This document shows positions 15,887-57,998 of a DNA stretch of 64,000 nucleotides, one piece after another. The stretch is from an uncultured cyanobacterium. GTDB lineage: Bacteria > Cyanobacteriota > Cyanobacteriia > PCC-9006 > JAAUQQ01. The notes below the pieces were generated by a model, which saw nothing but the letters and a program-made list of their open reading frames with translations, did no database searches and was not told the origin of the DNA. The position numbers and the translations under genes were made by a program. Each line of letters begins with the position of its first letter. The stretch's first letter is position 1. The stretch lies in contig OY970368.1 of the NCBI GenBank assembly GCA_963718615.1, forward strand, positions 4,416,001-4,480,000, read 5' to 3'.

Positions 15887-16627
15887 TTACAAAATTTCTA
15901 ATTCGTCCCAACCCTTGAGAAGTATATCTGCTCCGGCGATCGCCCCCAACGCCTCCCACCCCCATAACACCCCGATCGCCCCCGCAGCCCCCGCCCCCGT
16001 CGCCATCGTCAGATCTCCCTCCGCATCCCCAAACATTAACGTTTGGCGAGGATGGACCCCTAGCTTTTCACACACCGCCCGATAGGCCAGCGGATCGGGC
16101 TTGGCTGGTTCACAGTCATTTCCCCAAACAAGAGCCACCTGTTTGGCTAAGCCTTGGCAATCCAGAAAATCGAGAATATTGGCCGTCACATCCGCAGAAA
16201 TCACGCCAATCTGGACCTGGGCTTGGGTCAATTGGCTCAGAATCGGTCGGGCTTCGGGGAACAGGCGGGTGGTTTCGGCTTTGCGGGGCATGGGTTGGTC
16301 CGCTGCTTGGAAAGCCGTTTGGGCTAGGGCGATCGCCTCATACCACCCATACCCCTTCGCCGCCACATAGGTTGCTGCCGCCAGCGTCGTCTCCCGCCGC
16401 GAAGACACCGCCAGAAGCCCTGCCGGATTGAACTGTCCCTCTGCCCCAAACCCAAAGGCTCGCAACAAATCCGCCTCCACGCCCGGAACCCGCATTTCCA
16501 AACAGCGGGCTCTGTGCTGCCCCAACAATTTCAAATAGCTCGCCGAATCGGCCAGGGTACCGTCCTTATCAAAAAATACGGCTTGGATATCTCTAAACTC
16601 CCTCGCACCGCACCGAATAGTGGCCAT
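15887..16627 (-). CDS. HAD-superfamily hydrolase
   Basis: FFDKDGTL, KPDP, MFGDAEGD. Confidence 0.88.
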   Translation of the reverse strand: MATIRCGAREFRDIQAVFFDKDGTLADSASYLKLLGQHRARCLEMRVPGVEADLLRAFGFGAEGQFNPAGLLAVSSRRETTLAAATYVAAKGYGWYEAIALAQTAFQAADQPMPRKAETTRLFPEARPILSQLTQAQVQIGVISADVTANILDFLDCQGLAKQVALVWGNDCEPAKPDPLAYRAVCEKLGVHPRQTLMFGDAEGDLTMATGAGAAGAIGVLWGWEALGAIAGADILLKGWDELEIL

Positions 16628-30535: not shown

Positions 30536-33352
30536 ATGCCCCGCAAGAAAGTATCTCAATCTACAGATTCTGAACAGTTGGAACTTGTGGGAGCTGAACC
30601 CGAATCTTCTGAGGCAAAATCAAACACCAAAACTAAAAAAACCAAAGCTGAAAAAGCGAAGGTCCAGCAGCCTTTGACCACAGTCCAGCAGCTTGGCAGC
30701 ATTCTCAAATCTTGCCGAGACATTATGCGCAAGGATAAAGGGCTCAACGGGGATACCGATCGCCTACCGATGCTGACCTGGATTATGTTCCTCAAGTTTT
30801 TGGATGACGTGGAACGGCTGCGGGAAACAGAGGCGCTTTTGGCAGGAGAGACATTTAAGGCAGCGATCGAATCTCCCTACCGCTGGCGCGACTGGGCGGC
30901 TAATCCAGATCGGCCTACGGGGGATGAGCTGATTGCATTTATTGAACAAGAAAAAACGGTCAGACCCGATGGCCTGGAAGGGGCAGGGCTCTTTGCCTAT
31001 TTACGAGGACTTCAGGGAACGGATGGCAAGGATCGCCGGGATGTCATCGCGACGGTGTTCAAAGGCGCGATCAACCGGATGATCAACGGCTATCTGCTAC
31101 GGGATGTGATCAACAAGATCAACGGTATTCAGTTTCAGTCCTCCGAAGAGATTCATACCCTAGGGCACCTCTATGAGTCGATGCTGAAGGAGATGCGTGA
31201 TGCGGCTGGGGATTCGGGGGAGTTTTATACGCCACGTCCGGTGGTGAAGTTTATGGTGCGGGTGCTGGATCCGAGGCTGGGAGAGACGGTGCTGGATCCG
31301 GCCTGCGGCACGGGGGGATTCTTGCTGGAGGCCTTTGAGCATTTGAAGCCCCAGTGTCAGACGGTGGCGGATCAGGAGATTTTGCAGCAGTGCAGTTTGT
31401 TTGGTGGGGAGGCGAAGCCACTGCCCTATTTGCTAGCGCAGATGAATTTGCTGTTGCATGGATTGGAGTTGCCAGATATTGATGCGGGAAATTCGTTGCG
31501 GCATAAGCTGACGGAATTGGGCGATCGCGATCGCGTCGATATCATCCTGACCAACCCACCTTTTGGTGGCGAGGAAGAAAAGGGCATTCAGGGAAATTTT
31601 CCGGACGACAAGCAAACCAGCGAAACAGCACTCTTGTTTTTGCAACTGATTATGCGGTTGTTGCGGCGGAAGCAGGGCGATGAGACCGGTGGACGGGCTG
31701 GCGTCGTTGTTCCCAATGGCACACTGTTTGGGGATGGGGTTTGTGCGCGGATTAAAGGGCAGTTGTTGACGGAGTTCAATCTGCATACGATTGTGCGGTT
31801 GCCGAATGGGACATTTGCGCCCTATACGAGTATTCCGACGAATCTGCTGTTTTTTGACCGTTCTGGCCCCACAAAGGAAATCTGGTACTATGAGCAGCCG
31901 TTACCGGAGGGTCGCAAGAACTACTCCAAGACGAAGCCGCTTCAGTTTGAGGAATTGGCGGACTGTCTGGCTTGGTGGCATGAGCGCAAGGAAAATGACC
32001 AGGCTTGGAAGGTGCCGGTGGGAGATGTGCTGAAGTACAACGAGGATGGCACGTTGGCTTCGGTGAATTTGGATATCAAGAATCCGAGGGGGCAGGCGGC
32101 CATTGAGCATCGGCCCCCGGAAGATCTGGTGGCAAGTATTCAGGCAAAGGAGCGGCGGATTCTTGAACTTTCGGCGGAGATTTTGGCATCGCTGGGGGGC
32201 TCGGGAGCGAAATCTCATGATGAGGCGAGTGATGCAACGACAATGGAAACGCCATCCCAATTGGTTCAAAATTTCGCTGCGCTCATGCCCGATTTGCCTA
32301 TGGCTCGGCATCCGGCGGAGACGGGCTATAGCGATTTTTTAACGGATACGGTGGCGTTGTTGGAGGCGGCAAGGCGGGCGGCGGCGCGATCGGTGAATGC
32401 GGTGATGACGGCGACCTATTGGGAGCTGGGGCGGCGGATTGTGGAGTGGGAGCAGGGGGGCAAGGAACGGGCGGAGTATGGGAGTGGCTTGCTGAAGCGG
32501 CTCTCGCAGGATTTGACAGAAAAATTAGGGCGGGGGTTTTCGGAGCGAAATTTGGAGCAGATGCGGCGGTTTTATCTGGGTTGGCCGATTTCGCAGACGC
32601 TGTCTGCGAAATTTGTAGATTTGGCTGGACGCTTTCCGCTGCCCTGGTCGCACTATGTTTGTCTGTTGGGGGTGGAGCAAGAGGAGGCGCGATCGTTTTA
32701 TGAACGGGAGGCGTTGACCTACGGCTGGACGGTGCGGCAGCTAAAGCGGCAGATGGGGTCGCAGTTTTATGAACGGACGTTGTTGTCGAAGCATAAGGCG
32801 GCGATGTTGCGGAAGGCGGGGGAGGTGTTGCCGGAGGATGGGATGACGGTGGCGGAGGTGGTGAAGGATCCCTATGTGTTGGAGTTTTTGGATCTGAAGG
32901 ATGAGTATTCGGAGTCGGATTTGGAGGCGGCGTTGATTGCGCATCTGGAAACGTTTTTGTTGGAGTTGGGGGGGGATTTTGCGTTTGTGGGGCGGCAGCG
33001 GCGGTTGCGGATTGGGGATCAGTGGTTTCGGGTGGATTTGTTGTTTTTCCATCGGCGGTTGCGGTGTTTGGTGGTGATTGATTTGAAGTTGGGGGAGTTT
33101 AGTCATGCTGATTCGGGGCAGATGAATTTGTATTTGAATTATGCGCGGGAGCATTGGGTGAATGAGGGGGAGAATCCGCCGGTGGGGTTGATTCTTTGTA
33201 ATAAGAAGGATGCGGCGGTGGCGCATTATGCGTTGGCGGGGTTGGAGAATCAGGTATTGGCGGCGGAGTATCGGATGCTGTTGCCGGATGAGGCGGTGTT
33301 GGCGGCGGAGCTGGAGAAGACTAGGAAATTATTGGAGGAGCGTAAAGCTTAG
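30536..33352 (+). CDS. hsdM: type I methyltransferase subunit M fused to YhcG/DUF1016 nuclease domain
   Basis: GEFYTPR, DPACGTGGFL, NPPF (N6-adenine); from about 32320 YWELGRRIVE, GFSERNL, LPWSHY, KDPYVLEFL, RVDLLF, IDLK, GQMNLYLNY, PPVGLILC. Confidence 0.9.
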   Translation: MPRKKVSQSTDSEQLELVGAEPESSEAKSNTKTKKTKAEKAKVQQPLTTVQQLGSILKSCRDIMRKDKGLNGDTDRLPMLTWIMFLKFLDDVERLRETEALLAGETFKAAIESPYRWRDWAANPDRPTGDELIAFIEQEKTVRPDGLEGAGLFAYLRGLQGTDGKDRRDVIATVFKGAINRMINGYLLRDVINKINGIQFQSSEEIHTLGHLYESMLKEMRDAAGDSGEFYTPRPVVKFMVRVLDPRLGETVLDPACGTGGFLLEAFEHLKPQCQTVADQEILQQCSLFGGEAKPLPYLLAQMNLLLHGLELPDIDAGNSLRHKLTELGDRDRVDIILTNPPFGGEEEKGIQGNFPDDKQTSETALLFLQLIMRLLRRKQGDETGGRAGVVVPNGTLFGDGVCARIKGQLLTEFNLHTIVRLPNGTFAPYTSIPTNLLFFDRSGPTKEIWYYEQPLPEGRKNYSKTKPLQFEELADCLAWWHERKENDQAWKVPVGDVLKYNEDGTLASVNLDIKNPRGQAAIEHRPPEDLVASIQAKERRILELSAEILASLGGSGAKSHDEASDATTMETPSQLVQNFAALMPDLPMARHPAETGYSDFLTDTVALLEAARRAAARSVNAVMTATYWELGRRIVEWEQGGKERAEYGSGLLKRLSQDLTEKLGRGFSERNLEQMRRFYLGWPISQTLSAKFVDLAGRFPLPWSHYVCLLGVEQEEARSFYEREALTYGWTVRQLKRQMGSQFYERTLLSKHKAAMLRKAGEVLPEDGMTVAEVVKDPYVLEFLDLKDEYSESDLEAALIAHLETFLLELGGDFAFVGRQRRLRIGDQWFRVDLLFFHRRLRCLVVIDLKLGEFSHADSGQMNLYLNYAREHWVNEGENPPVGLILCNKKDAAVAHYALAGLENQVLAAEYRMLLPDEAVLAAELEKTRKLLEERKA

Positions 33353-42075: not shown

Positions 42076-42210
42076 CGATCGCCCCAATCCCCCCCCCTCT
42101 GGGTTGTGGCGTTTCCTCCAGTCCATAAAAAAGCCTTGACGGGATGCCAAGGCTCAGATGGAAGGGGATGGAAAACAGAGGTTCGCAAGTATACGAACCG
42201 CAGCGAATTC

Positions 42211-42468: not shown

Positions 42469-42759
42469 CAAGGTTTTACTCCCTAAAAAGCTTCTAAAAG
42501 AGACCTAAAGTATACGAGATCTACCGTAGTTCGTAACAGACTGTAGCGACGGGGGGGTAGCGATCGCAGCAATATTTAACGATTGTGTGAACGTTTGCAA
42601 CAGAGTGGATCCCTAAATTGGACTCTCAAATTGGATCCCTGCCTTGAGCCCTGGGCTGTCAAGTGGGTGCCGAGGGCAACTCTATACGGTTTTGCCTCCC
42701 TCTAGTTTTGCCCTCGGGGATTCGCTATCGTAACCAGATGTTTTCAGGAGCAGGTGGCC

Positions 42760-44257
42760 ATGGCCCCAAACAGCGGCAAGAGCATTAACGGTACCCTATT
42801 GCAATCTTTTCATTGGTACATTCCGCCGGACGGAGCCCACTGGCAGCAGCTAGCTCAAAAGTCCGCAGAGCTTGCGGAAGCCGGGTTTACAGCCCTTCTG
42901 GCTACCACCAGCCTATAAGGCCAGTGGCGGCGGCTATGACGTGGGCTATGGGGCCTACGATCTGTTTGATTTGGGGGAGTTTGATCAAAAGGGCAGCATT
43001 CGCACGAAGTACGGCAACCGAGCCGATTATTTAGCGGCAATTCAGGCGGCCCAGGCGGCGGGCATGCAGGTCTATGGGGACTGCGTGTTTAATCACAAAA
43101 ATGGGGGCGATCGCGAGGAAGAGTTTGAAGCGATACCCGTGTGGGAAGAGGATCGGAATACCGCCAAAGGACCAGTGGAGCGGGTCAAAGCTTGGACCGC
43201 ATTTGATTTTCCGGGACGCGGCGAGCAATATTCCAAAATGAAATGGCGTTGGTGGCACTTTGACTCGCTCAATCACAACATGCTTAAGCCGGGTGATTCA
43301 ACGATTTATCGGCTCAAAGATAAGCAGTTTGAAACCGATGTGGATCTTCGCCATAGCAACTACGACTTTTTGATGGCCTGCGATCTAGATACTAGTCATC
43401 CTGAAGTCAGCCAGGAACTCAAAGCTTGGGGAGAGTGGTATGTAGACACAACCGGCATTGATGGATTTCGTTTAGATGCGGTTAAGCATGTGCGGGCAGG
43501 CTTTTTTGCAGAGTGGCTAGATCAGGTGCGTTGCTATGCCCATCGCGATCTGTTTACGGTCGGTGAATATTGGTCTGAGGATTTAAGAGCGCTCCATTGG
43601 TTTTTGAGTCGAACCGGGGGCCGAATTTCCCTGTTTGATGTGCCGTTGCACTATAACTTTCATCGGGCTAGCAAGGCGGGTCAATCCTATGACCTCCGTC
43701 AAATTTTGGATAACACCTTGATGCAGCAACAACCTGCCTTGGCGGTTACCTTTGTCGACAACCACGATTCCCAACCCTTGCAAGCCTTAGAATCCGTCGT
43801 TGAGGCTTGGTTTAAGCCCTTAGCCTATGCCTTGATTCTGCTGCGTCGGGAAGGCTATCCCTGTGTGTTCTATGGGGATTATTACGGGGCTCACTATCGC
43901 GATCGCGGTCGGGATGGCAATGAGTATGAGATTTGGCTCGATTCCCATCGTTGGCTCATCGATCAATTCCTCCATGCTCGGCGTCACTATGCCTATGGTC
44001 CCCAATATGACTACTTTAATCAGCCCAACTGTATTGGCTGGACTCGCTTAGGGGATGCGGAGCATCCAGGGGGATTGGCAGTTTTGATGAGTAATGCGGC
44101 TGGAGCAAGCCAATGGATGGAAGTGGGGCGACCCCATTGTCTATTTTATGACGCCACTCAGCGGATTGCTGAAACTGTGAAAACTAACGAGTGGGGCTGG
44201 GGAGAGTTTCACTGTCAAGGGGGGTCTGTCTCTCTCTGGTTGCCAGTCGAACCCTAG
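42760..44257 (+). CDS. GH13_5 alpha-amylase with +1 frameshift at about 42898
   Basis: Frame 1 NGTLLQSFHWY...AGFTAL joins frame 2 WLPPAYK...GYGAYDLFDLGEFDQKG, GFRLDAVKH, GEYW, FVDNHD. Confidence 0.88.
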
Positions 44258-44757
44258 GGGTTTGACCCCTGCAAGTTTTAATTTTCCGAATTCGGAAAGG
44301 ATCCGTAAAAACACAGAGATAGCCTTGGCAAAGCCAGGGCTTTTTCGGATCGGTATTTACTAGGCTTCTAAGAGAAATTACTTAGATAATTCTGGGTCAA
44401 TTCCGTATAAATGCTAAGTTAACCGTTAAGCCTTAGATGTCTGACTAACCATATAGATTCGTGATTGAGACTAATGTTTGGACTGAGTGAGACAGTTTGA
44501 GATAGATACGACCGTTGGCATAAATCTCAGAAATTCTTCGTACTTTCACGGGATTTTGAGGCAGCAATCTACCGAAGAAACTCGTATTTATTTCTGCTTT
44601 TCAACCATGGCAGTCTAAGGGAACGAACTCCGAAGAGCTACTGAGAAGTCCTTCAAGATCTGGTTTTCTTAACACGAAGCTTGCGAGTTTTCTCTGTAGA
44701 TCAAAAGCGAGTTAACCCCTTCTAACTGCGAGTCCTTAGGAATTGGAGAACTTAAGA
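44258..44757 (+). promoter_or_regulatory. 500-bp AT-rich upstream region with palindrome and repeated CGTA-N5-(T/C)AC-like motifs
   Basis: TTTCCGAATTCGGAAA 44283-44298; TCCGTAAAAACACAGA 44302; TTCGTACTTTCACGGG 44537. Confidence 0.4.
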
Positions 44758-46401
44758 ATGGATAGCAATGTGAGCATACTTAAGGGCCAAGATTTGGCAG
44801 TCCGCCTAGCCAGTAACGGTCTAAATCCTCAGCCGCAAATCGAAACCCCTATTTCTCAAAAACCATCAGGATTTGACTGGGAACCGGAGGTTTGGGAACG
44901 AATGATCTCAGAAATGGGTGAACTAGTTCGAGACGCCTCCACCCGCTGGGAAGAACGACGGTTTACGCCTAAATTGGATGGAGATATCCGTGGGTTGTTT
45001 GACCAACCTTTGCCGCTACAAGGAGCCCATTGGGATGACATCCTTCAGCATCTGCGACAACTCATTGATTGTTCGGGCTACAACGGCCATCCCCGCTGGT
45101 TTGCCTATATCACCTCTTCTCCAGATCCGATTGGCGTGTTAGGTGCGTTCCTAACGGCTGCTCTCAATCAAAACAATAACCTTTGGCGAATTGCACCGGG
45201 TGCAACCAGTATTGAGTTGCAATGCATCAATTGGTTCAAAGCCATGTTTGATTTGGAAGACTCCTGGGAAGGTATTTTTGCCAGCGGTGGACAACTGGCG
45301 AATATTATTGCCTGCGCAGTGGCTCGCCAGCATCATTGTCCCTGGGATATCCGTCAATATGGGGTTGCTGGCCCCGCACAGGCTGGACGCTTGACCCTCT
45401 ACACCAGTGATCAGGCCCACTATTGCCACCGTCAGGCAGCGGAACTGTTGGGCCTAGGCTCAGAGTCGTTGCGGGTTGTCCCAACGGATGAGCATTATCG
45501 GATGCGGGTGGATGTTTTAGCGGAGATGATTGCGCGCGATCGCCATGACGGCGCTATTCCCCTTGCAGTGATTGCAACGGCAGGAACCGTGGCCACGGGG
45601 GCGATCGACCCCTTGGAAGATCTACGTATCCTGACGCAAAACGAACAAATGTGGTTACATGTCGATGGGGCCTATGGTTTACCGGCTTACCTTGTGCCGG
45701 AGATTGCGCCTCAACTGGCAGCAATGAGATCTGCTGATTCTTTATCGTTTGACCCTCACAAATGGTTGTATAGTCCACTTGATGCAGGCGTGACGCTAGT
45801 CCGGCATCCAGGAGCATTGCGCAAAGCATTTGGTTTTCAGGTCAGCTATCTAGATCAAAATGCTGGGACTCAAGGATCTGGGGTTCAAGGAATTAGAGCT
45901 GAAGGGGCTGTGGATTTAGTGGACTTTACCTTAGAAAATTCTCGCCCAGCCCGTGCTACTAAGGTTTGGCTCTCGCTCATGGCCCATGGCCTAGAAGGGT
46001 TTCGCTCCCAGATTAGTCAAGACATCCAACTCACCCGGTACATGGCCCGCAGAATTGCAGAAACACCGGGCTTAGTTCTCCAAGCTGAACCCACGTTATC
46101 GATTGTTTGTTGGCGGGTTGAACCGTCTTGTTTCCTTGGGGATCAAACTGCACTCAATGACTTGCAGCTCAAAGTGATTGAACTACTGGAACAACGGGGT
46201 ATTGCTTTTCTCTCTAAGGCCAAGCTGCACGGCGATAAAATCGCTCTACGCGCCTGCATTGTAAATTTTCGGACCCAAATTGACGACATAGAAACCGCTG
46301 TCATGGCCAGCGCCATGGTCGGTTTGGAACTGGCATCTCAATTTGATCTTGATCTACCCTTAGAGCCTCTTTACGGGTTTCAGTTTGATGCCGCTCAATA
46401 A
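44758..46401 (+). CDS. group II PLP-dependent amino-acid decarboxylase
   Basis: HPRWFAY, SGGQLAN, SDQAHYC, TAGTVATGAIDP, HVDGAYG, DPHKWL (PLP Lys), LRACIVNFRT. Confidence 0.9.
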   Translation: MDSNVSILKGQDLAVRLASNGLNPQPQIETPISQKPSGFDWEPEVWERMISEMGELVRDASTRWEERRFTPKLDGDIRGLFDQPLPLQGAHWDDILQHLRQLIDCSGYNGHPRWFAYITSSPDPIGVLGAFLTAALNQNNNLWRIAPGATSIELQCINWFKAMFDLEDSWEGIFASGGQLANIIACAVARQHHCPWDIRQYGVAGPAQAGRLTLYTSDQAHYCHRQAAELLGLGSESLRVVPTDEHYRMRVDVLAEMIARDRHDGAIPLAVIATAGTVATGAIDPLEDLRILTQNEQMWLHVDGAYGLPAYLVPEIAPQLAAMRSADSLSFDPHKWLYSPLDAGVTLVRHPGALRKAFGFQVSYLDQNAGTQGSGVQGIRAEGAVDLVDFTLENSRPARATKVWLSLMAHGLEGFRSQISQDIQLTRYMARRIAETPGLVLQAEPTLSIVCWRVEPSCFLGDQTALNDLQLKVIELLEQRGIAFLSKAKLHGDKIALRACIVNFRTQIDDIETAVMASAMVGLELASQFDLDLPLEPLYGFQFDAAQ

Positions 46402-46515
46402 TTTTTGATGGTTTAAAAGGGTGCTCAGTATACTCCAACTACTTAAGCCCTGTTAGCCTAAATTAGCGTTAAGATTTAGGCTTTTTCCTGTGTTCTCTTA
46501 TCGATTAGCAAGAAG

Positions 46516-47721
46516 ATGCAAACTCAATTAACCGCGATCGCAACTCCTCAAAATCCCTTTTGTTTCCAAGACGGTGCTCAACTAGATGACCTCGTGGTAG
46601 CTTGGAAATCCTGGGGAAAACTCAATTCCCGACAGGATAATGTGATTTTGTTATTCCCGGTTTTGACCACGAGTCACCATGCCGCTGGTTTTGATCCCCA
46701 AGGACCCAACAGCCCCTGGTGGACATCAGATTGTTATCAGGGGTGGTGGGATGAGTTTATCGGGCCAGGGAAAGCGCTCGATACCCGCCGTTGGCATGTC
46801 ATCTGCGCCAGTTTTCTGGGGGGATGCTATGGAACGACTGGGCCATCTAGCCTAGATCCGAAGACGGGAAAAGTTTGGGGCGATCGCTTTCCCTATCCCC
46901 ATGTTTCCGACTTAGTTGATGCCCAGGTGCGGCTGTTAGATGCCCTCGGAATTCATCAGCTAAAAGCAATTGTGGGAGGATCTTTTGGTGGCTATTTGGC
47001 CTTGGATTTTGCCCTGCGTTATCCCCTGCGGACTCAGCAGGTGGTTTCGATCGCCAGTGGCTTGCGGGTTACGGAAGCAATGAAACTGTCAAATTTTCAG
47101 CAGATTATGGCGATCGAGTTCCATGGAGAACGGTTGTCAGAATCGAAAATAGTAGACCAAAAGGCTGGTGTGCAAAAGACTAAAAAAGGCTTAGAACTAG
47201 CCCGTATGATTGCCATGCAACAGTATATCGTGGCAGATGAAATCGATACCTATTGTCGACAATCGGTTGATCCAAAGCTCAAAGATCAGGGTCAGTATTC
47301 CCTTCGTCATCCGGTGGAAAGCTGGTTGCTCTACCAAGGGCAAAAGTTTTCCCAGCGCTTCGATCCCCAAAGTTATTTGAGGCTACTATACGCTTGGCAA
47401 AACTGGCATCCTGCCCTCAAGGATTCTGCCTGGGAAATCTCTACCCTACTCAATTCCTGTCGGCAACAACAATGGCTACTCTTTTCCATTGATTCCGATG
47501 CTTGTTTTCCGGTCCAAGAGCAAATGCTGCTTGCCCAGGCACTCACTGCCGCCGGAGTTCCCCACAAGTTTGTTTCTGTTGCTTCGCGATTGGGCCATGA
47601 TTCCTTTCTGCGAGAACCCAAACTTTATCAATGGGAACTCCAGGCATTTCTTGAACATCAGCAGCCCCCTCTTCCGTCAATTCCTGTAACTGGTGGGGTT
47701 TTGGTTGAGGGAAAACGCTGA
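46516..47721 (+). CDS. MetX-fold (homoserine O-acetyltransferase-like) alpha/beta hydrolase acyltransferase
   Basis: WGKLN, GWWDEFIGPGKALDT, GTTGPSS, GGSFGG (Ser), IDSD (Asp), GHDSFL (His). Confidence 0.85.
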   Translation: MQTQLTAIATPQNPFCFQDGAQLDDLVVAWKSWGKLNSRQDNVILLFPVLTTSHHAAGFDPQGPNSPWWTSDCYQGWWDEFIGPGKALDTRRWHVICASFLGGCYGTTGPSSLDPKTGKVWGDRFPYPHVSDLVDAQVRLLDALGIHQLKAIVGGSFGGYLALDFALRYPLRTQQVVSIASGLRVTEAMKLSNFQQIMAIEFHGERLSESKIVDQKAGVQKTKKGLELARMIAMQQYIVADEIDTYCRQSVDPKLKDQGQYSLRHPVESWLLYQGQKFSQRFDPQSYLRLLYAWQNWHPALKDSAWEISTLLNSCRQQQWLLFSIDSDACFPVQEQMLLAQALTAAGVPHKFVSVASRLGHDSFLREPKLYQWELQAFLEHQQPPLPSIPVTGGVLVEGKR

Positions 47722-47740
47722 ATCTTTGACTTGAATGGGG

Positions 47741-47760
47741 TTTGGGGCGATCGCCCCAAA
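47741..47760. repeat. 20-bp perfect palindrome centred on HIP1, possible terminator
   Basis: TTTGGGGCGATCGCCCCAAA, about 20 nt after the stop of the MetX-like gene. Confidence 0.7.
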
Positions 47761-47957
47761 TCCCTCATCCCCCACAGATAATCCGCCAAGAACGGGTTCA
47801 TTGACGGTGAGCAGATGACTTTGGGCTGGCTGATAAAAACGTCTTGATCTGTAATTATACGGAATTGAGAATCCCTTAGGTTTACTATTGCTTTTCTCAG
47901 AAAAATCTAGCACTATGAAGTCATAATCCCGTTATCCTGCTAGTAGGCTCTGTATCT

Positions 47958-50039
47958 ATGTCTGCGTCTGGTGTGTGTAAAAAAAACGACATCCAAACAA
48001 GACTTGATTTTGCAGATCGGCTGTTACAAGGTGTTGCAAATGCATCTGACTGTCTGCTAAATATCGAAGATTTTCAGGATTCTATTCAGAGCTCACTGGC
48101 GACCCTAGGAACGGCGATTCAGGTCGATCGCGTTTATATTTTTAGTTGTACCCAAGATCCAGTGACGCAGGTGCCCTTGATGAGCCAGCAGTGGGAATGG
48201 GTCACGGAGGGTATTACACCGGAAATCGATAATCCTGAACTACAAAATTTACCATTCCTTGATTATTTTCCTCGTTGGTATAAAGTCCTGTCTACGGGGC
48301 AAGATATCTCCGGTTTGGTGCGAGACTTTCCAGATTCGGAAAAAGAGATTCTAGATCCCCAAGGAATTCTATCCATTGTTATTGTTCCTATTTTTGTCCA
48401 AACCCAATTTTGGGGGTTTATGGGGTTTGATGACTGCAATCGGGGTCACGACTGGAGCAGTAGCGAAGTTCTCTCTTTAAAGACCGTTGCGAGGAGTTTT
48501 GGAGGAGCATTTGCCCGTCGGCAAGCTGAAGAAAAACTACAGGAAGTCAATCAGTCGCTAGAGCAACGGATTCAAGAACGTACGGCTGAATTGCAAGTCG
48601 CTAAAGAGCAAGCTGATAGCGCAAATCGAGCTAAAAGTGAGTTTTTAGCCAACATGAGTCACGAGTTAAGAACTCCGCTCAACGGCATTCTAGGCTATGC
48701 GCAGATTCTTGAGGGCTCGGATAATCTGAATGACAAAGAGCAAGATGGGGTGCGAATTATTAATCAATGTGCGTCGCATTTGCTTTTGCTGATTAATGAT
48801 ATTTTAGACCTATCAAAAATTGAATCTAGCAAGATGGAGCTCTATCCAACAGCTTTTCATCTGGACTCAATGCTGCGGGGGGTTGTTGATATCTGTCAGA
48901 TTCGGGCTCAACAGAAAGGGATTGACTTCTTCTTCGAATCCAGCGGACAGCTTCCCATTGGAATTATTGCGGATGAAAAACGCCTCCGTCAGGTGTTGCT
49001 TAATCTCTTAAGTAATGCTGTTAAGTTTACACAGAAAGGTTCGGTTCGATTTGAGCTAACAGCTTTCTACTCCGAAGCGGACGAAATCGCTGAATTGCCA
49101 CTGTACAAATTACAATTTAAGATTATTGACACTGGCATTGGAATTAGTAAAAGTGACTTAGACAAGATCTTTTTACCCTTTGAACAGGCGAGACGTGTAG
49201 AGTCTCATCAGTCGGAAGGTACAGGTTTAGGATTGGCCATTAGCCAACGTATTGTCAGACTCATGGGGAGTGATTTAGAGGTTGAGAGTCAGATTGGCAA
49301 AGGCAGTACGTTTAGATTTGAGATTCAGATCCCTGAGGCTTCGGAATGGATTGACCAAACCACGGTGTTGAAAGGGAAGAAAGTTAAAGGAGTGAAAGGA
49401 GACCCACCCTGTATTTTGATTATTGATGACCGTTGGGAAAACCGTGCGGTGATTCGAAGCTTCCTTACACCGTTAGGATTTGATGTTTTGGAGGCTGAAA
49501 ATGGCCAACAGGGTTTAGAACTAGCGCTGGAGCGATCGCCCCAACTGATTATCACCGATTTGGCCATGCCCGTGATGGATGGATTTGAGTTTTTGCACGT
49601 GGCTCGTCAGTCTTTTCCGCTCCAAGAAAAACTGATTTTTGTGTCTTCTGCCAGTGTTTTTCCTGCGGATCAACAACGCAGTTTGGATGCAGGGGGGAAT
49701 TTCTTTCTGTCCAAGCCGGTGCAGTTTCCAGAACTGCTGGATGCCCTAGAGACCTATTTGCACTTAGAGTGGATCTATGAGCCTCGAGCTATTTCCCAGT
49801 CTGCTCCCCTTCCCGTATCTGCCGAAATGCTTGTTCCTCAGATCGAAGATTTGCAACATCTACAGAAACTGCTACGGAGTGGGCTGATTAATAAATTTAT
49901 TAAGGAACTCGATAACCTCAACCAGCAGGATTCGAACTTTCAGCCCTTTACCGAGCATCTGCGGGTCCTGGCTCAAGGTTTTCGGCTCAAGCAGATGAAG
50001 ACCTTTATTGATGGTTATTTGGCCTCTACCGTTGGATAG
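47958..50039 (+). CDS. cytoplasmic hybrid histidine kinase GAF-HisKA-HATPase-REC
   Basis: VDRVYIF...[13 protein letters not shown]; [14 protein letters not shown]; [22 protein letters not shown]; IDD...TDLAMP...KP. Confidence 0.92.
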
Positions 50040-50107
50040 AGAATGTTTGACGGTGGGAATGAGACACTAGGTTTTATGCGTGCCTTTCTGTGTGATTTTT
50101 TGATGCT

Positions 50108-51763
50108 ATGCCCCTATCAAAACTGTCTCGCGATCGCACTCAGCCCACGATTTTGATCATTGATGATCAGCCCAATAATCTCCAGGTTCTTTCAGAAACT
50201 TTGAGTCAAGCCGACCTACAGGTTGCTGTGGCGATTGATGGGGAAAGTGCCCTAGAGCAATTGCAATATCTCCAGCCGGATCTCATTTTGCTCGACATTA
50301 TGATGCCAGGTATGGATGGATTTGAAGCTTGTCAGCGCATTCAATCCGATGCCGCCCTAGCCATGATTCCGATCATTTTTATGACGGCTTTGACCGAAAC
50401 GGAACACAAAACCCATGCCTTTGAACTAGGTGCAGTAGATTACATTACGAAACCCTTTCAGCAGGCTGAGGTTTTGGCTCGGGTTCAAGTTCATCTCAAT
50501 TTGCGTCACCTGAATCAAACCCTGGAGCAAAAGAATCAGGAACTTCGAGAGCAGAAGGCGGCGATCGAGCAAGCCAATCAGGCAAAAAGCAAATTTTTGG
50601 CCAATATGAGCCATGAATTGCGGACGCCCCTCAATAGTGTTCTGGGTTATGCTCAAGGGCTGAGCCAGTCGACTCATCTGACCCAGCAAGAATCTCAGTG
50701 GGTTGAGGGGATTTATTCATCCGGTTCACATCTGCTGATGCTGATTGAGGATTTGCTGGATATTTCCAAAATTGAAGCCGACAAAATTACCTTGGCACCC
50801 ACTCATGTGATACTCGATAACTTCTTACAAAGCGTGATTTGTATGTTTCAAGCCCGTGCCGATGAAACCCAAATTAGGCTGATTACTGAAATCGATCCCG
50901 AGCTGCCTGCCGCTGCCTATGTGGATGAAAAACGTTTGCGGCAGGTATTGCTGAATTTACTGAGTAATGCCTTCAAATACACCTTAACGGGTTCGATTTG
51001 GCTACGGGTGCAGTTGCGATCGCACGACAACACCCCCTTTCTAGGCATTGAAGTTGAGGATACCGGCATTGGCATTGAGCCCCAAAATCAAGTCAAAATC
51101 TTTGAACCCTTTGAACAAGTCAATCCTCACCATCATTACTCCCAAGGTACGGGCTTAGGGCTAGCGATTAGTCAACGGCTGGTCAAACTCATGGGCGGAG
51201 AAATTGGTCTGCGCACTCAGCCCGGTCAAGGCAGTTGCTTTGCGTTTGAAATCCCCATTGCCTCTCCCCAAACGCCTTATTTTTTGCAACCATTTTTGCA
51301 AGAAACGGGAATCGTGGGCTATGAAGGTGAGGTCTGTCGACTCCTCCTCATCTCTGATGCTCAGGCTAAACTGGAGTCGTCCACTGCTACTCAGCCATCC
51401 GCTAGGGCTAGCAATTCCATCGAAGACATGGCTCACTTGCTCCGGGTCTTAAATTTTAATGTGGAAATGGTGGGCGATCAGACTACCGCCCTACGTCAAG
51501 CGCAAAACTATCCGCCCGATTTAATTTTGCTGGATCTGACAGAATCTATTTCGGCGTCTGTAGCGCATACCCTCAAAGCTATTGCGGAATTAGAGGCAAT
51601 TCCCATTGTTGGCATTGCCCCTCGAAATCAGCAAGCGTCGCTGAGCGGACTCACGCCTGAGCCAATAGCTACGCTACTCAGCACACCGGTTTCTCCCATT
51701 CAGCTCGTGAAAGCCCTAGAGGAATTGCTCCTGCTCACCTGGAGCCGACAGGCTTCGCCTTGA
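50108..51763 (+). CDS. hybrid histidine kinase REC-HisKA-HATPase-(degenerate REC)
   Basis: IDDQPNN...LDIMMP...KPF; SHELRTPLN; DTGIGI, GTGLGL; C-terminal REC lacks the DD and KP residues. Confidence 0.9.
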   Translation: MPLSKLSRDRTQPTILIIDDQPNNLQVLSETLSQADLQVAVAIDGESALEQLQYLQPDLILLDIMMPGMDGFEACQRIQSDAALAMIPIIFMTALTETEHKTHAFELGAVDYITKPFQQAEVLARVQVHLNLRHLNQTLEQKNQELREQKAAIEQANQAKSKFLANMSHELRTPLNSVLGYAQGLSQSTHLTQQESQWVEGIYSSGSHLLMLIEDLLDISKIEADKITLAPTHVILDNFLQSVICMFQARADETQIRLITEIDPELPAAAYVDEKRLRQVLLNLLSNAFKYTLTGSIWLRVQLRSHDNTPFLGIEVEDTGIGIEPQNQVKIFEPFEQVNPHHHYSQGTGLGLAISQRLVKLMGGEIGLRTQPGQGSCFAFEIPIASPQTPYFLQPFLQETGIVGYEGEVCRLLLISDAQAKLESSTATQPSARASNSIEDMAHLLRVLNFNVEMVGDQTTALRQAQNYPPDLILLDLTESISASVAHTLKAIAELEAIPIVGIAPRNQQASLSGLTPEPIATLLSTPVSPIQLVKALEELLLLTWSRQASP

Positions 51764-51772
51764 GTCGCCCGG

Positions 51773-52090
51773 TTAAACTTCCTTCGCTTGAACATCGACC
51801 GTCGCCCCTTCGACCCCCGAAGCGTTTGCAGCCGCTGCGGCGCTGTCTGGAGCATCTGGAGTCTTACCGGCACTGAGACGCTCTAGTAAGATTTGGGACA
51901 GTTCGGCGACCAAAAGTCCGGCAATAATGCCATCATCCAGCCAACCCACAATGGGAATCAGGTCCGGGGAAAGATCGAAGGGCATCAAAAGGTAGGCCAC
52001 AGACCCGAGAATAACCCACCAGCGGTATTTGGGATTGCGGATGGCGTCGCGATACCAGTTGTAGAGGGACTGCACAGAAAAACTCTTCAT
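51773..52090 (-). CDS. YkvA/DUF1232 membrane protein
   Basis: YLLMPFDLSPDLIPIVGWLDD; start inferred at MKSFS. Confidence 0.85.
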   Translation of the reverse strand: MKSFSVQSLYNWYRDAIRNPKYRWWVILGSVAYLLMPFDLSPDLIPIVGWLDDGIIAGLLVAELSQILLERLSAGKTPDAPDSAAAAANASGVEGATVDVQAKEV

Positions 52091-52298
52091 GGGGATATCC
52101 AATGAGGACATCCCAATTTTGCCAAACCCTCCCGCAAAAGTCTGGTAAAGAAAACCCAAAGTTTTGGTGAGAAAACCCGCTGGAGGCGTTCTAACGCTGA
52201 AACCAGGGACTCCCAGAAGCAATTTTGGTGAAATCAACTATAATTGAATCACGCTTCCTTGACCACCGTCTTTACCACTGTCCAAAGGATGAACCCCT

Positions 52299-53274
52299 GT
52301 GTTTCTAACTGCTAATCGTCCCGCTGGGGCTCAGAATTCCCCAACGGAAATTCCCCAAGATTTGTTTGCGGCCATTGATGATCTGAAGCGGGAGCTGAAG
52401 GCGATCGTCCTGGCTCACTATTACCAAGAACCGGATATCCAAGACATCGCCGACTACATTGGTGACTCTCTGGGGCTCTCGCAGCGGGCGGCGGAAACCG
52501 ATGCGGAGGTAATTGTGTTTGCCGGGGTGCATTTCATGGCCGAAACCGCCAAAATTCTCAACCCTGACAAGTTGGTGCTGTTGCCAGATCTAGAGGCCGG
52601 TTGTTCTCTGGCCGATAGCTGTCCGCCGGAGCAGTTTGCGGTGTTTAAGGCCCAGCACCCAAACCATCTGGTGATCTCCTATATTAACTGCACCGCTGAG
52701 ATCAAGGCTCTGAGCGATATCATTTGCACGAGCTCCAATGCGGTGAAAATCGTCAACCAGATTCCAGCGGATCAGCCGATTATTTTTGCACCCGATCGCA
52801 ACCTCGGTCGTTATGTGATGGAACAAACGGGCCGAGACCTAGTCCTTCTGGGAAGGTAGCTGCATCGTCCACGAAACTTTCTCCGAGCGCAAGCTGGTGG
52901 AGCTAAAGGTGGCGAATCCCAAGGCAGAAATCATTGCCCATCCGGAATGCGAACCCACGGTCCTAAACCACGCAGATTTCATCGGCTCGACCACGGCGCT
53001 GCTCCAGTACAGCCAACAGAGTCCGAGGGAGGCGTTTATTGTAGTGACCGAATCCGGGATCATTCACCAAATGGAAAAAGCCATGCCAGAAAAACGCTTT
53101 ATCCCTGCGCCACCGATGAATCAATGCGCCTGCAACGAATGCCCCCATATGCGCTTGAATACGCTGGAAAAGCTGTACTTAGCGATGAAAAACCGCCAGC
53201 CCGAGATTACACTTGCGCCAGACATTCAGCAGGCTGCCCTAAAACCGATTCAGCGGATGTTGGCAATGAGTTAA
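52299..53274 (+). CDS. nadA: quinolinate synthase with +1 frameshift at about 52848
   Basis: LAHYYQ, GDSLGLS, GVHFMAE, GCSLA, YINC, PDRNLG...RDLVL then next frame [28 protein letters not shown]. Confidence 0.9.
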
Positions 53275-53308
53275 AGGGATTGTTTCTGTTTTCCATGTCT
53301 GCGAGCTC

Positions 53309-54106
53309 ATGAAGCGGGTGGGGGAGATGACTGATTTTTCAGGCTTTGAGGAATTTGAATTGACGGCAGAGGATGCCTGTCGCACCGTATTTGTGCGGGG
53401 CAGCGGTCCAGCGGTGGTGGTACTGCACGAACTGCCGGGGATGATTCCGGAATGCGTCGCTTTGGCGCAACGGATTGCCGATGCGGGGTTTACGGTGTTT
53501 TTGCCGCTGCTGTTTGGGGAACCGAATCAGCCGCTCTCGCTGGGGAAAATGGCAGCCTATACTGTCCAGCTTTGTCTCAGTCGCGAGTTTTATCTGCTGG
53601 CCAAAAATCAGTCGAGCCCGATTACGGCGTGGCTCAAAGCCCTGTGTCGGGAAGCGAAGTCTCGCTGTGGCGATCGCGGCGTCGGGGTCATCGGCATGTG
53701 CCTGACCGGGGGCTTTGTGCTGTCCTTGATGACGGACGAATCGGTTTTGGCTCCGGTGCTGAGCCAGCCGTCGTTGCCCTTGGGGGTGATGCTAGGGCAG
53801 AAGCGGGCGTTGGGGATTTCTGCGGAGGCGTTGGCGATCGCCAAAACCCGCGCCGAGAAGGGCTGTATTCCCTTGGGATTTCGGTTTACGGGCGATCGCC
53901 TCTGTCCCGCCGAACGCTTTGCCCGCCTCCGGGAGGAATTTGGTCCGCATATCGAGCTGACTGAAATTGATTCATCCCCGGAAAATAGCCATCAGATTCA
54001 GCCCAATGCCCATGCGGTGCTCACGGTCAGTTTTGTGGATCAGCCGGGACATCCCACGCGGGCAGCGCTCGATCGCATTCTGGAAACCTTTCGAGCCCGC
54101 CTGTAA
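53309..54106 (+). CDS. dienelactone hydrolase family protein
   Basis: VVVLHELPG, GVIGMCLTGG nucleophile elbow, AHAVLT. Confidence 0.85.
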   Translation: MKRVGEMTDFSGFEEFELTAEDACRTVFVRGSGPAVVVLHELPGMIPECVALAQRIADAGFTVFLPLLFGEPNQPLSLGKMAAYTVQLCLSREFYLLAKNQSSPITAWLKALCREAKSRCGDRGVGVIGMCLTGGFVLSLMTDESVLAPVLSQPSLPLGVMLGQKRALGISAEALAIAKTRAEKGCIPLGFRFTGDRLCPAERFARLREEFGPHIELTEIDSSPENSHQIQPNAHAVLTVSFVDQPGHPTRAALDRILETFRARL

Positions 54107-54358
54107 TCAAAAAAACATTCAATAAAGCCATCAATCTAGTGTTGCTCAAGCCTTCTCTGGGAACTTGAGTCACCCTATGCCGTCTTCGAGGAAACAGTTC
54201 CCATAATCACACCGGAATTAATCACACCGGAATCGCTCACAAGCAGCGTGAGATCACCCTTATCTCCTTTTGTTGATGGCCCCCATTTCTTTGCTTCTCA
54301 GATTTGGCCCAGCTCGGCCAAGGTTTGGCCACACCGTCGTTTAGATTCCAGAGAACCG

Positions 54359-54986
54359 ATGCGCTTTTCTCCCGTCTTCTCTAAAACCGTCTTCTCTAAA
54401 ACCGTTTCTGCTAAAACCGCATTGCTCTTGAGTTTGGCAACTTTAGGCATGGCGACCCTGGGGATGGCGATCGCCCCCCCTCCAGCCCAAAGTCAACCCC
54501 TTCTGGTGGCGACTCCGCCGAATCCCCGCTAGCCCCCCCGTTACTGAGACGGCTCCCACAACGGCTGCTCAAGCCATGCCCAAGGCCGCTAGTGACGGCA
54601 CGATCACCAGTTTATTTCAGTTTTCTAACGATGCTCGGGTTAAAGCCAAGCAAAATGCCCTGACCCTTTCCCCTCAGCTCTCAGCGGCGGCTCAGCGCCA
54701 TGCCAATGACCTGGCCAATGGGGCGAAGTTTTCCCATACGGGGTCGGATGGTTCGCAGATGGGCGATCGCATCAAAGCCACAGGCTACGTTTTCCGCACC
54801 GCCGGAGAAAATATCTATATGCAGGCTCCCCGCAACGGCCCCGCCGATGCGGTCAAGGGCTGGCTCAACAGCCCCGGTCATCGTGCGAATTTGCTCAGCA
54901 ACAAATTTACCGAAATCGGCCTTGGCTACGCCAGCAACGGCAACAAGCATTATTACGTGCAGGTCTTTGGCACACCGTTGCATTGA
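54359..54986 (+). CDS. secreted CAP/SCP-domain protein with +1 frameshift between about 54500 and 54527
   Basis: Signal peptide ORF 54359-54532; CAP domain in next frame (FSHTGSDGS, GENI, WLNSPGHRANLL, EIGLG, YVQVFG); the second frame is open across the junction. Confidence 0.8.
54372..54416 (+). repeat. 3 x 15-bp in-frame tandem repeat (VFSKT)
   Basis: ccgtcttctctaaaa ccgtcttctctaaaa ccgtttctgctaaaa. Confidence 0.85.
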
Positions 54987-56983: not shown

Positions 56984-57098
56984 TTCTCTATCTCATGGAG
57001 TCAAACATTCCTGGAAAATCTGGTGATTTGATGCGTTAGACTGCCTTTAACGCAGGTGTCATTGCCGGAGGTCTGTCTCTTTACTCGATACCTACATA

Positions 57099-57347
57099 GG
57101 GGCATCTCGAAAAATAGCCATTTGTGTTCTCACTATGAGATTCTAGAGAAGGGATTGAAGGCAGCAGTGATGGCTCAACGCGGATTGTGGGATGAAGAAG
57201 CTCGGCAGGAGAAACTGGCGAGTAAGAAGAGTCTGCTGCCGCGTTTGGCCGAAATGGTTCCGTGGGAAAGCCTTCGAGAGACCTTGGAGAGGATCCACCA
57301 GAAGGAGCGCAAGAGCAATGCCGGGCGAAAGCCGATGGACGCGGTCT
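57099..57347 (+). mobile_element. IS5-family left end and truncated transposase N-terminus
   Basis: GGGCATCTCGAAAAA end-like motif; ATG 57170 MAQRGLWD...VPWESLRETLERIHQKERKSNAGRKPMD, cut off at the neighbouring gene. Confidence 0.75.
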
Positions 57348-57884
57348 CTAGTGAATCTCCCCAAACAGTTCGTTTAGCCAAGACAAGGCCGCTAAGCCTT
57401 CCACATTTTCACGACAGGGCAAGTGAAAAAAATCAGCCAGTGTATGAGCCATTTTCCAGGTCTGGGCATGATTCCCCGTGTTTTGTGTCAAGGAAACCGC
57501 TTTCCCTGAGCGAAGGAGCAGCCGAACCCGGTAACGTTTGTTGTATCGGTAGGTTCGGCCATAGAGCTCAATCCAGCATATCTGCTGGAGATGACACTGC
57601 ATTTGCCGCATCCTACGGATCCCTTGGCGACGCAGGGTGAGGGTGTGGGTTTGGCGATCGCAGTGGCAGATCAGAACTTCAGATCGAAAGATCGTCACTC
57701 CCCCAATCCCCAAAAGCACAAGCATGGGTAAAAGCGCTAACCACTGCCCCGTAGTGATCACCTGACTGATTTGGACCAGAATTCCAGCCCCGCCCCCTAA
57801 GCCATAGAGCAGGCCAAGACCTAGGGAGGCCCATGGCCAATCCTGAAACGATAACCGTTTCTCATCCTGGTGCAGAATCTGCAT
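57348..57884 (-). CDS. hypothetical membrane protein (2 TM plus PH-like soluble part)
   Basis: Two hydrophobic helices, then CDRQTHTLTLRR...YRVRLLLRSG. Confidence 0.6.
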   Translation of the reverse strand: MQILHQDEKRLSFQDWPWASLGLGLLYGLGGGAGILVQISQVITTGQWLALLPMLVLLGIGGVTIFRSEVLICHCDRQTHTLTLRRQGIRRMRQMQCHLQQICWIELYGRTYRYNKRYRVRLLLRSGKAVSLTQNTGNHAQTWKMAHTLADFFHLPCRENVEGLAALSWLNELFGEIH

Positions 57885-57998
57885 GGCAAATGGCCCATTC
57901 ACAGCAAATCAATCGCCAATCAACAGCCAATCAATAAACTCAGAGTTCCCTCCCCTGCATCGGACAATCGTTTTGATCGCACAATCCTGTCTCCGATG

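Follow-up and report, generated by a model that had tools for sequence, protein, structure and literature searches.

A surplus T at the heptamer CCTCTGG splits genes across a cyanobacterial genome and is best read as a motif-linked assembly error

A 64,000-nt stretch from the genome of an uncultured cyanobacterium (the window, G000:C1:4416001-4480000, where G000 is the source genome, a single contig of 6.10 Mb with 52% G+C) contains three unrelated genes that are split at or around the same octamer, CCTTCTGG. These encode an alpha-amylase, the quinolinate synthase NadA, and a protein of the CAP family. An initial reading of the window, hereafter the original prediction, had proposed two explanations for the coincidence: an ordinary one, in which the assembly errs at a motif, and a genome-wide +1 recoding or editing signal at CUU-C-UGG. 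Analysis of the whole genome shows that the breaks stem from one surplus T that turns CCTCTGG into CCTTCTGG. The extra base follows the motif whatever the frame or strand, is missing in relatives, and bears no sign of selection, and the CCTCTGG 7-mer is the leading cause of gene breakage in an assembly that is clean in other respects. The pattern noticed at the outset is real and non-random, and it is best filed as a motif-linked assembly error, very probably a systematic long-read sequencing or consensus error at CCTCTGG. The surplus base would, on this account, be missing from the real DNA, with its origin presumably in the sequencing platform or in a modification of the template.

Split genes in the window

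The original prediction that the amylase, nadA, and CAP genes are each split at or around CCTTCTGG with CTT in frame is borne out for all three by the halves of the open reading frames (ORFs) and by homology (Table 1). Its further claim, that skipping one base regains Leu-Trp in the amylase and in NadA, is supported by the Pfam and phmmer matches of the separate halves. The upstream amylase ORF matches 6toy_A, 1bli_A, and others (E 4e-10), with query residues 8-46 aligned to chain residues 2-40, and the downstream ORF resumes at WLPPAYK and runs to the chain ends, its best phmmer match being 4uzu_A (E 1e-162). The chains matched by the two halves are solved Bacillus-type alpha-amylases.

For nadA, one base fewer is found inside the octamer in 10/10 aligned relatives, from 11 relatives' loci in the database. 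Among the 120 NadA homologues in the matches listed, the 186-aa form is the window's own alone; 117 of the remaining 119 are 311-326 aa long and two are partial. The closest relative among the matches listed is 88% identical, and no sister strain is on record there. The break in the CAP gene can be placed no finer than the 83-nt overlap of the two frames (54447-54529), which contains both the octamer and a C7 run at 54474-54480. CAP homologues occur in 10 of the 13 genomes searched, G000 among the 10, and the three family members examined in relatives are single open frames of 188-238 aa that start MRFSLKQS or MRFSVQKS.

With four copies of CCTTCTGG, the window is ordinary in copy number (shuffle mean 2.88; at least four copies in 31/100 shuffles). 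Three of the four plus-strand sites at 42-55 kb of the window are affected. Three of the comparison sites named in the original prediction are present as described, with CCTCTGG at 1197 (minus strand) and 4114 (plus strand) and CTTCTGG at 16411 (minus strand). Around the fourth CCTTCTGG, on the minus strand, two opposite-strand ORFs overlap, 57056-57640 (plus strand, 194 aa) and 57348-57902 (minus strand, 184 aa); a Pfam scan of both gave no match.

Table 1. Features of the window and other genes broken at the octamer. Positions are those of the window unless given as G000:C1 coordinates.
Feature	Position	Strand	Details
Eco57I-family N6-adenine methyltransferase domain	31499..31801 (G000:C1:4447499-4447801)	+	in a 953-aa open frame
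Native CCTCTGG	42096..42102	+	sole plus-strand site at 42-55 kb without surplus T
Alpha-amylase, upstream piece	42760..42918	+	CTT phase; ATG 42760; premature stop 6 codons past CTT; ends ...GFTAL
Alpha-amylase, octamer CCTTCTGG	42894..42901	+	surplus T = 42896 or 42897
Alpha-amylase, downstream piece	42899..44257	+	+1 frame, from TGG 42899; Pfam Alpha-amylase 31-371
nadA (quinolinate synthase), N-terminal piece	52299..52859	+	CTT phase; 186 aa; Pfam NadA 2-158 of 295
nadA, octamer	52844..52851	+	at break; frame switch also against relative G023
nadA, C-terminal piece	52849..53274	+	+1 frame; Pfam NadA 160-295 of 295
CAP gene, N-terminal piece	54359..54532	+	CTT phase; ATG 54359; MRFS... and a signal-peptide-like hydrophobic stretch
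CAP gene, octamer	54499..54506	+	within the 83-nt frame overlap of the split gene
CAP gene, linker and CAP domain	54504..54986	+	+1 frame; Pfam CAP 5-117 of 117
Fourth CCTTCTGG	57298..57305	-	tied to no break
PfkB-family kinase			CTT phase; Pfam 3-195 / 203-301
pyrD			CTT phase
DUF1818 gene			CTT phase; Pfam 1-77 / 69-112
ribD			CTT phase; RibD_C 1-107 / 115-196
DUF2344 gene			phase CCT-TCT-GG (1 break); Pfam 1-116 / 118-162
TPR gene	G000:C1:3116222-3123401	-	phase TCC-TTC-TGG (4 breaks)
PknG-like kinase			opposite strand, coding strand = CCAGAAGG; Pkinase / PknG_TPR 59-340
ClC-CBS / Usp protein			opposite strand, coding strand = CCAGAAGG; one 881-aa ORF in G023

Breaks across the genome

The genome contains 247 copies of CCTTCTGG, against a Markov expectation of 216, and 993 copies of CCTCTGG. 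A test of every octamer copy for the ORF signature of a one-base insertion, made for each of the three phases and each strand, gave 57 loose hits in 1482 tests, with about 33 expected, and the long ones were then checked by homology. This check led to acceptance of 14 breaks in 11 genes. Seven of the breaks have CTT in frame (amylase, nadA, CAP, PfkB-family kinase, pyrD, DUF1818, and ribD), five lie in other phases, and two have the octamer on the strand opposite to the gene. The pyrD site is at G000:C1:4822233 and the ribD site at 2273567. Six further breaks, including those in an NdhF-like protein and an IS30-like transposase, are probable and stand outside the count of 14. The affected share amounts to about 2% of CCTCTGG sites genome-wide (20/1013, the denominator being the 993 CCTCTGG copies plus the affected CCTTCTGG copies). 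The same extra base appears in every phase and on both strands; it is read here as a DNA-level feature of the record, unrelated to translation.

Several candidates were kept out of the count. In the Pfam scans, one or both halves matched no family at 4973634, 5073993, 1075649, 2464578, and 5139673, and, for one half only, at 4224606. Candidates at 5199098, 1314438, and 813048 were also left out of the 14. At 1144336 the upstream ORF holds a complete Endonuclease V, so the site probably separates two genes, and neighbouring genes may also explain the candidates at 5131700 (Gamma_PGA_hydro / FGE-sulfatase) and at 5856473, where the end of a histidine kinase was recognized from a reading of the peptide.

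The identity of the surplus base is seen directly in the repeats of the TPR gene, which lies outside the window. This gene is built of near-identical 241-nt repeats and falls into five frame pieces separated by four surplus-T sites; three of the five pieces were scanned with Pfam, and TPR_12 repeats were found in all three. At four of the repeats, which carry ...TCCTTCTGGA..., the open frame shifts by +1 each time (frames 2>0>1>2>0); two sister copies carry ...TCCTCTGGA... and leave the frame unmoved, one of them with flanks identical from about -30 to +27. The repeats concerned lie at 3118383-3119593. Summed over its frame pieces, the protein would be about 2300 aa long. A second duplicated sequence shows the same two forms, with and without the surplus T. 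Since these paired repeat copies differ by the T, the event is the conversion of CCTCTGG to CCTTCTGG by one surplus T, or one A on the opposite strand.

Census against a relative and motif specificity

An unbiased view of frame breaks was sought by comparison with a complete relative, G023, in which long ORFs from 2.8 Mb were compared with the whole genome by tblastn, yielding 921 ortholog-like matches. A frame-switch locus was defined as one relative protein matching two adjacent stretches in different frames. Fourteen distinct loci of this kind were found, and the octamer lies at the junction in five of them, with 0.031 expected (Poisson P 2e-10). All five (nadA, pyrD, ribD, DUF2344, and ClC-Usp) belong to the extra-base type, and their identities are the highest; the other nine comprise one transposase, one T6 run, one G7 run, and six weak pairs. 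In the reverse control, ORFs of G000 were searched against the 2.8-Mb stretch of G023 used above (870 ortholog-like matches); six loci were recovered and none carries the octamer at the junction, although this control stretch contains the octamer 114 times. No motif-linked loss of a T, the opposite change, was found in the census.

Some other interruptions can be described individually. The extra-base switches without the octamer at G000:C1:22067-22108 and 5407996-5408031 fall at the T6 and G7 runs and may be ordinary homopolymer errors. A frame switch in a transposase at about 237600 is common to the G023 copies and may be programmed or inherited. At G000:C1:6092057-6092141, the ortholog of an 1116-aa G023 protein is broken by about 60 nt between inverted GTTACTCCCCGTAGGGAC... 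/ ...GTCCCTACGGA arms; this looks like a small palindromic insert and not a one-base frameshift.

The specificity of the signal was gauged with a scan of stop-free 8-mers in all phases and on both strands, in which the octamer (14/224, with 4.5 expected) ranks second of 18434 words. None of its 24 one-letter neighbours is enriched, and frame breaks are no more frequent than expected at homopolymers of 4 to 8+ bases. The restriction to stop-free words was adopted after a first k-mer scan had been swamped by multi-copy elements and, once repeats were masked, by stop-codon words at gene boundaries. A second motif, GGCCGATG, with a missing-base signature at 26/363 sites against 7.2 expected, proved to be noise: the ORFs concerned are non-coding frames (e.g., RRVSQLRTRRRGR), and the real genes read through. 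The p-values of the ORF-signature test are consequently loose, and homology was relied on instead. Classing of phases by the longest ORF also mislabelled some sites, ribD being first tagged as read-through, and was replaced by phases taken from high-scoring segment pairs. Native CCTTCTGG, read CCT-TCT-GGG, occurs in a mobile element of 13 copies (e.g., 1090686, 1561189, and 3856228), whose assignment as IstB-like ATPase rests on the motif GPSGVGKTH read from the peptide.

Recoding of the message

If the broken frames were joined during gene expression, either by +1 ribosomal frameshifting on CUU-C-UGG or by removal of one U from the mRNA, the octamer would be a genome-wide recoding signal. In prfB and Ty1 the ribosome slips on CUU; CTT stands in frame at 7/14 verified breaks, and, as described above, a one-base skip yields Leu-Trp in the amylase and NadA. 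Slippage on CUU cannot, however, mend the five breaks in other phases or the two on the opposite strand. The motif is also read straight, as nnC-CTT-CTG-Gnn, in seven homology-supported genes that give an unbroken match to the relative's protein, a finding that removes the proposal of the original prediction that the 5' C would matter. In some phase, about 40 genes read the octamer normally (the read-through listing has 41 sites, one of which is the amylase break itself, with an over-extended alignment), and the octamer is therefore insufficient as a signal for either ribosome slippage or mRNA deletion.

The decoding context does not favor slippage either. In the 0 frame CUU is followed by CUG, which is used for Leu more often than any other codon (26% of Leu, 30.1 per 1000), and a gene for tRNA-Leu(CAG) is present. 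By eye, the 15 bases before each of the three window sites contain no GGAGG- or AGGGGG-like run that could act as a Shine-Dalgarno-like stimulator. The orthologue comparison suggested in the original prediction gives recoding no support: the frameshift is not conserved, the nadA base being missing in every aligned relative and the CAP homologues of relatives being single ORFs. The listing of tRNA-Leu genes that it also suggested was made with aragorn, which reported 49 tRNA genes with the Leu anticodons CAA, CAG, GAG, and TAG and no TAA. TTA makes up 10% of Leu codons even though no tRNA-Leu(TAA) was listed; in cyanobacteria a group I intron usually interrupts the tRNA-Leu(UAA) gene, and the aragorn scan would miss a gene of that form.

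The shared phase of the three window sites has a simpler source. Of 184 native CCTCTGG sites in homology-supported coding sequence, 73 (40%) are read C-CTC-TGG and 63 (34%) are read CCA-GAG-G on the other strand, and these are the two classes most often broken. The common phase thus follows from the codon-phase preference of the native heptamer. Among the six Leu codons CTT is used least (9%), against 22% for CTC, as fits an original CTC-TGG. With the motif standing in the same phase in seven intact genes and the breaks independent of phase and strand, the recoding or editing signal put forward in the original prediction does not stand, and it is regarded here as highly improbable.

A sequencing error weighed against a real insertion

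The ordinary explanation in the original prediction, a motif-linked assembly error, fits everything that could be tested. The downstream parts of the broken genes, those of nadA, pyrD, and ribD among them, are 67-75% identical to G023 and show no decay. The affected share among sites in conserved genes (5/189) is similar to that genome-wide, with no depletion of conserved genes. Were the T real, the synthesis of NAD, pyrimidines, and riboflavin (nadA, pyrD, and ribD) would all be dead in one free-living phototroph, an outcome that favors an artefact. Affected sites are also clustered: nine pairs lie no more than 15 kb apart, with 0.96 expected (p 5e-5), and the members of such pairs always share one orientation. 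Clustering over about 10 kb in a single orientation is consistent with a read error specific to one strand, prevailing in the consensus only where reads of that orientation dominate.

In the proposed mechanism, the basecaller or the consensus step would err systematically at the CCTCTGG 7-mer, owing either to a modified base on the complementary CCAGAGG, for example N6-methyladenine from a type IIG-like methyltransferase, or to a k-mer-specific signal. Reads of one strand would then call the first T twice, and the consensus would flip solely where reads of that strand locally dominate. Such local dominance would account for the low rate per site, for the 10-kb clusters of one orientation, and for the difference between repeat copies with identical flanks. 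According to Wick et al. (2019; PMC6591954), nanopore consensus errors can consist predominantly of systematic ones at modification motifs, which persist at any read depth, and a second study (PMC8486125) reports that slow translocation accompanies insertion errors. The window itself encodes an Eco57I-family N6-adenine methyltransferase domain (Table 1), one of several methyltransferase domains in the genome; five of the Eco57I family, including that of the window, lie in large open frames, two of the others close together (3583962 and 3589166), and there is one N6_N4 domain. An asymmetric modified motif, with the Eco57I-family domain of the window as a candidate enzyme, is plausible, and is offered as context and not as evidence.

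A number of observations weigh against a sequencing error. The assembly is otherwise clean at homopolymers, so that the error mode would have to be narrow. Sequence context alone is insufficient, as only about 2% of the sites are affected and copies with identical flanks differ. The motif strand of the affected loci is mostly minus at 1.5-3.8 Mb and mostly plus at 4.2-5.8 Mb (16 loci, 3 exceptions), a chromosome-scale pattern that would be unexpected for a sequencing error; a runs test done by hand puts it at about p 0.08, which is weak, and GC skew gave no clear replichores against which the pattern could be set. A literature search, with supplements outside its scope, gave no report of a CCTCTGG/CCAGAGG error motif or of a matching methyltransferase.

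A search of sequencing runs found no run containing the strain; only five metagenome runs contained 5-12% of the sampled words. When X1-X4 contigs (150-540 nt) were placed on the window at 42500-54700, no listed piece bridged any of the three sites; the bin with 42894 was uncovered, and no left-out letter was listed at the three sites. One X4 contig of 134 nt aligned over 54376-54501 only, with its last 8 letters loose, ending inside the octamer, and so favors neither form of the word. Two exact-pattern scans of metagenome contigs, which spanned the nadA and the pyrD site and left the position of the T either empty or filled by one letter, gave 0 hits each.

An alternative is that the T is real and arises by a motif-specific insertion at CCTCTGG, for example through slippage, or through repair gone wrong, where the site is modified or nicked. 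Perhaps only some chromosome copies of a polyploid cyanobacterium would then carry it, and the cells would thus survive. The recurrence of a one-base change at a single 7-mer, the local clustering of affected sites, the weak strand pattern at chromosome scale, and an assembly not otherwise error-prone at homopolymers are all points in favor of such a process. A real insertion would, however, have knocked out at least 11 genes in one clone, nadA, pyrD, and ribD included, yet downstream of the breaks these genes are undecayed, and the hits spare conserved genes no more than others; furthermore, no motif-linked lost T appears in the census, and relatives are without the base. Insertion in the DNA is accordingly judged unlikely. 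Slightly less likely again is its more far-reaching form, in which the T is truly chromosomal through an undescribed insertion process, perhaps tied to a strand-specific modification or nick and to the direction of replication, and is tolerated through intact polyploid copies or through mending at the RNA level by a context rule. A systematic error in sequencing or consensus building is thus retained as the favored explanation.

Implications

If the surplus T is an artefact, false splits affect about 20-30 genes of a complete reference genome, including nadA, pyrD, ribD, the alpha-amylase gene, and the gene for the long TPR protein. Some 20-30 of the 247 octamer copies would then be expected to carry a surplus T, which agrees with their excess over the Markov expectation of 216. 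The genome appears to be the species representative in the collection searched, and protein databases will take up the fragments of the split genes, as has already happened with the 186-aa NadA piece, a singleton there. A simple rule, which flags any frame break at CCTTCTGG or CCAGAAGG, would pick these genes out, and it may also help where further assemblies from this pipeline share the error mode. The case also illustrates that a pattern of same motif and same phase, which invites a translational explanation, can have its source in the phase that a 7-mer prefers within codons. Were the T real, a new motif-specific mutational process would be at hand.

Comparison with known systems

The breaks bear some resemblance to programmed +1 frameshifting in prfB, at CUU-UGA-C, and in Ty1, at CUU-AGG-C. 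In prfB, as at the CTT-phase sites here, CUU stands in the P site, and the productive frame is entered by skipping one base. At the sites described here, by contrast, CUU is followed by neither an in-frame stop nor a slow codon, an upstream Shine-Dalgarno-like stimulator is missing, and orthologues do not share the shift; the octamer is moreover read normally in seven genes, and the same extra base breaks other phases and the other strand. The likeness to Ty1 likewise extends to CUU followed by a skipped base. Ty1 needs a rare, slowly decoded A-site codon, whereas the codon in that position here is CUG, the commonest for Leu, with a gene for its cognate tRNA.

The closer parallels lie among errors of sequencing. 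Homopolymer-length errors of long-read and flow-based methods share with the present case a base that is called twice, T becoming TT, but here the run is of one base and the full CC_T_CTGG context is needed. The nanopore consensus errors at the Dcm motif CCWGG, as described by Wick et al. (2019; PMC6591954), are alike in their link to a short word, their recurrence genome-wide, their blindness to gene, frame, and strand, and the false pseudogenes that they create. The errors at CCTCTGG are distinguished by the insertion of one T in an asymmetric 7-mer, by the low share of sites affected, and by their local clusters, and the two phenomena are probably akin.

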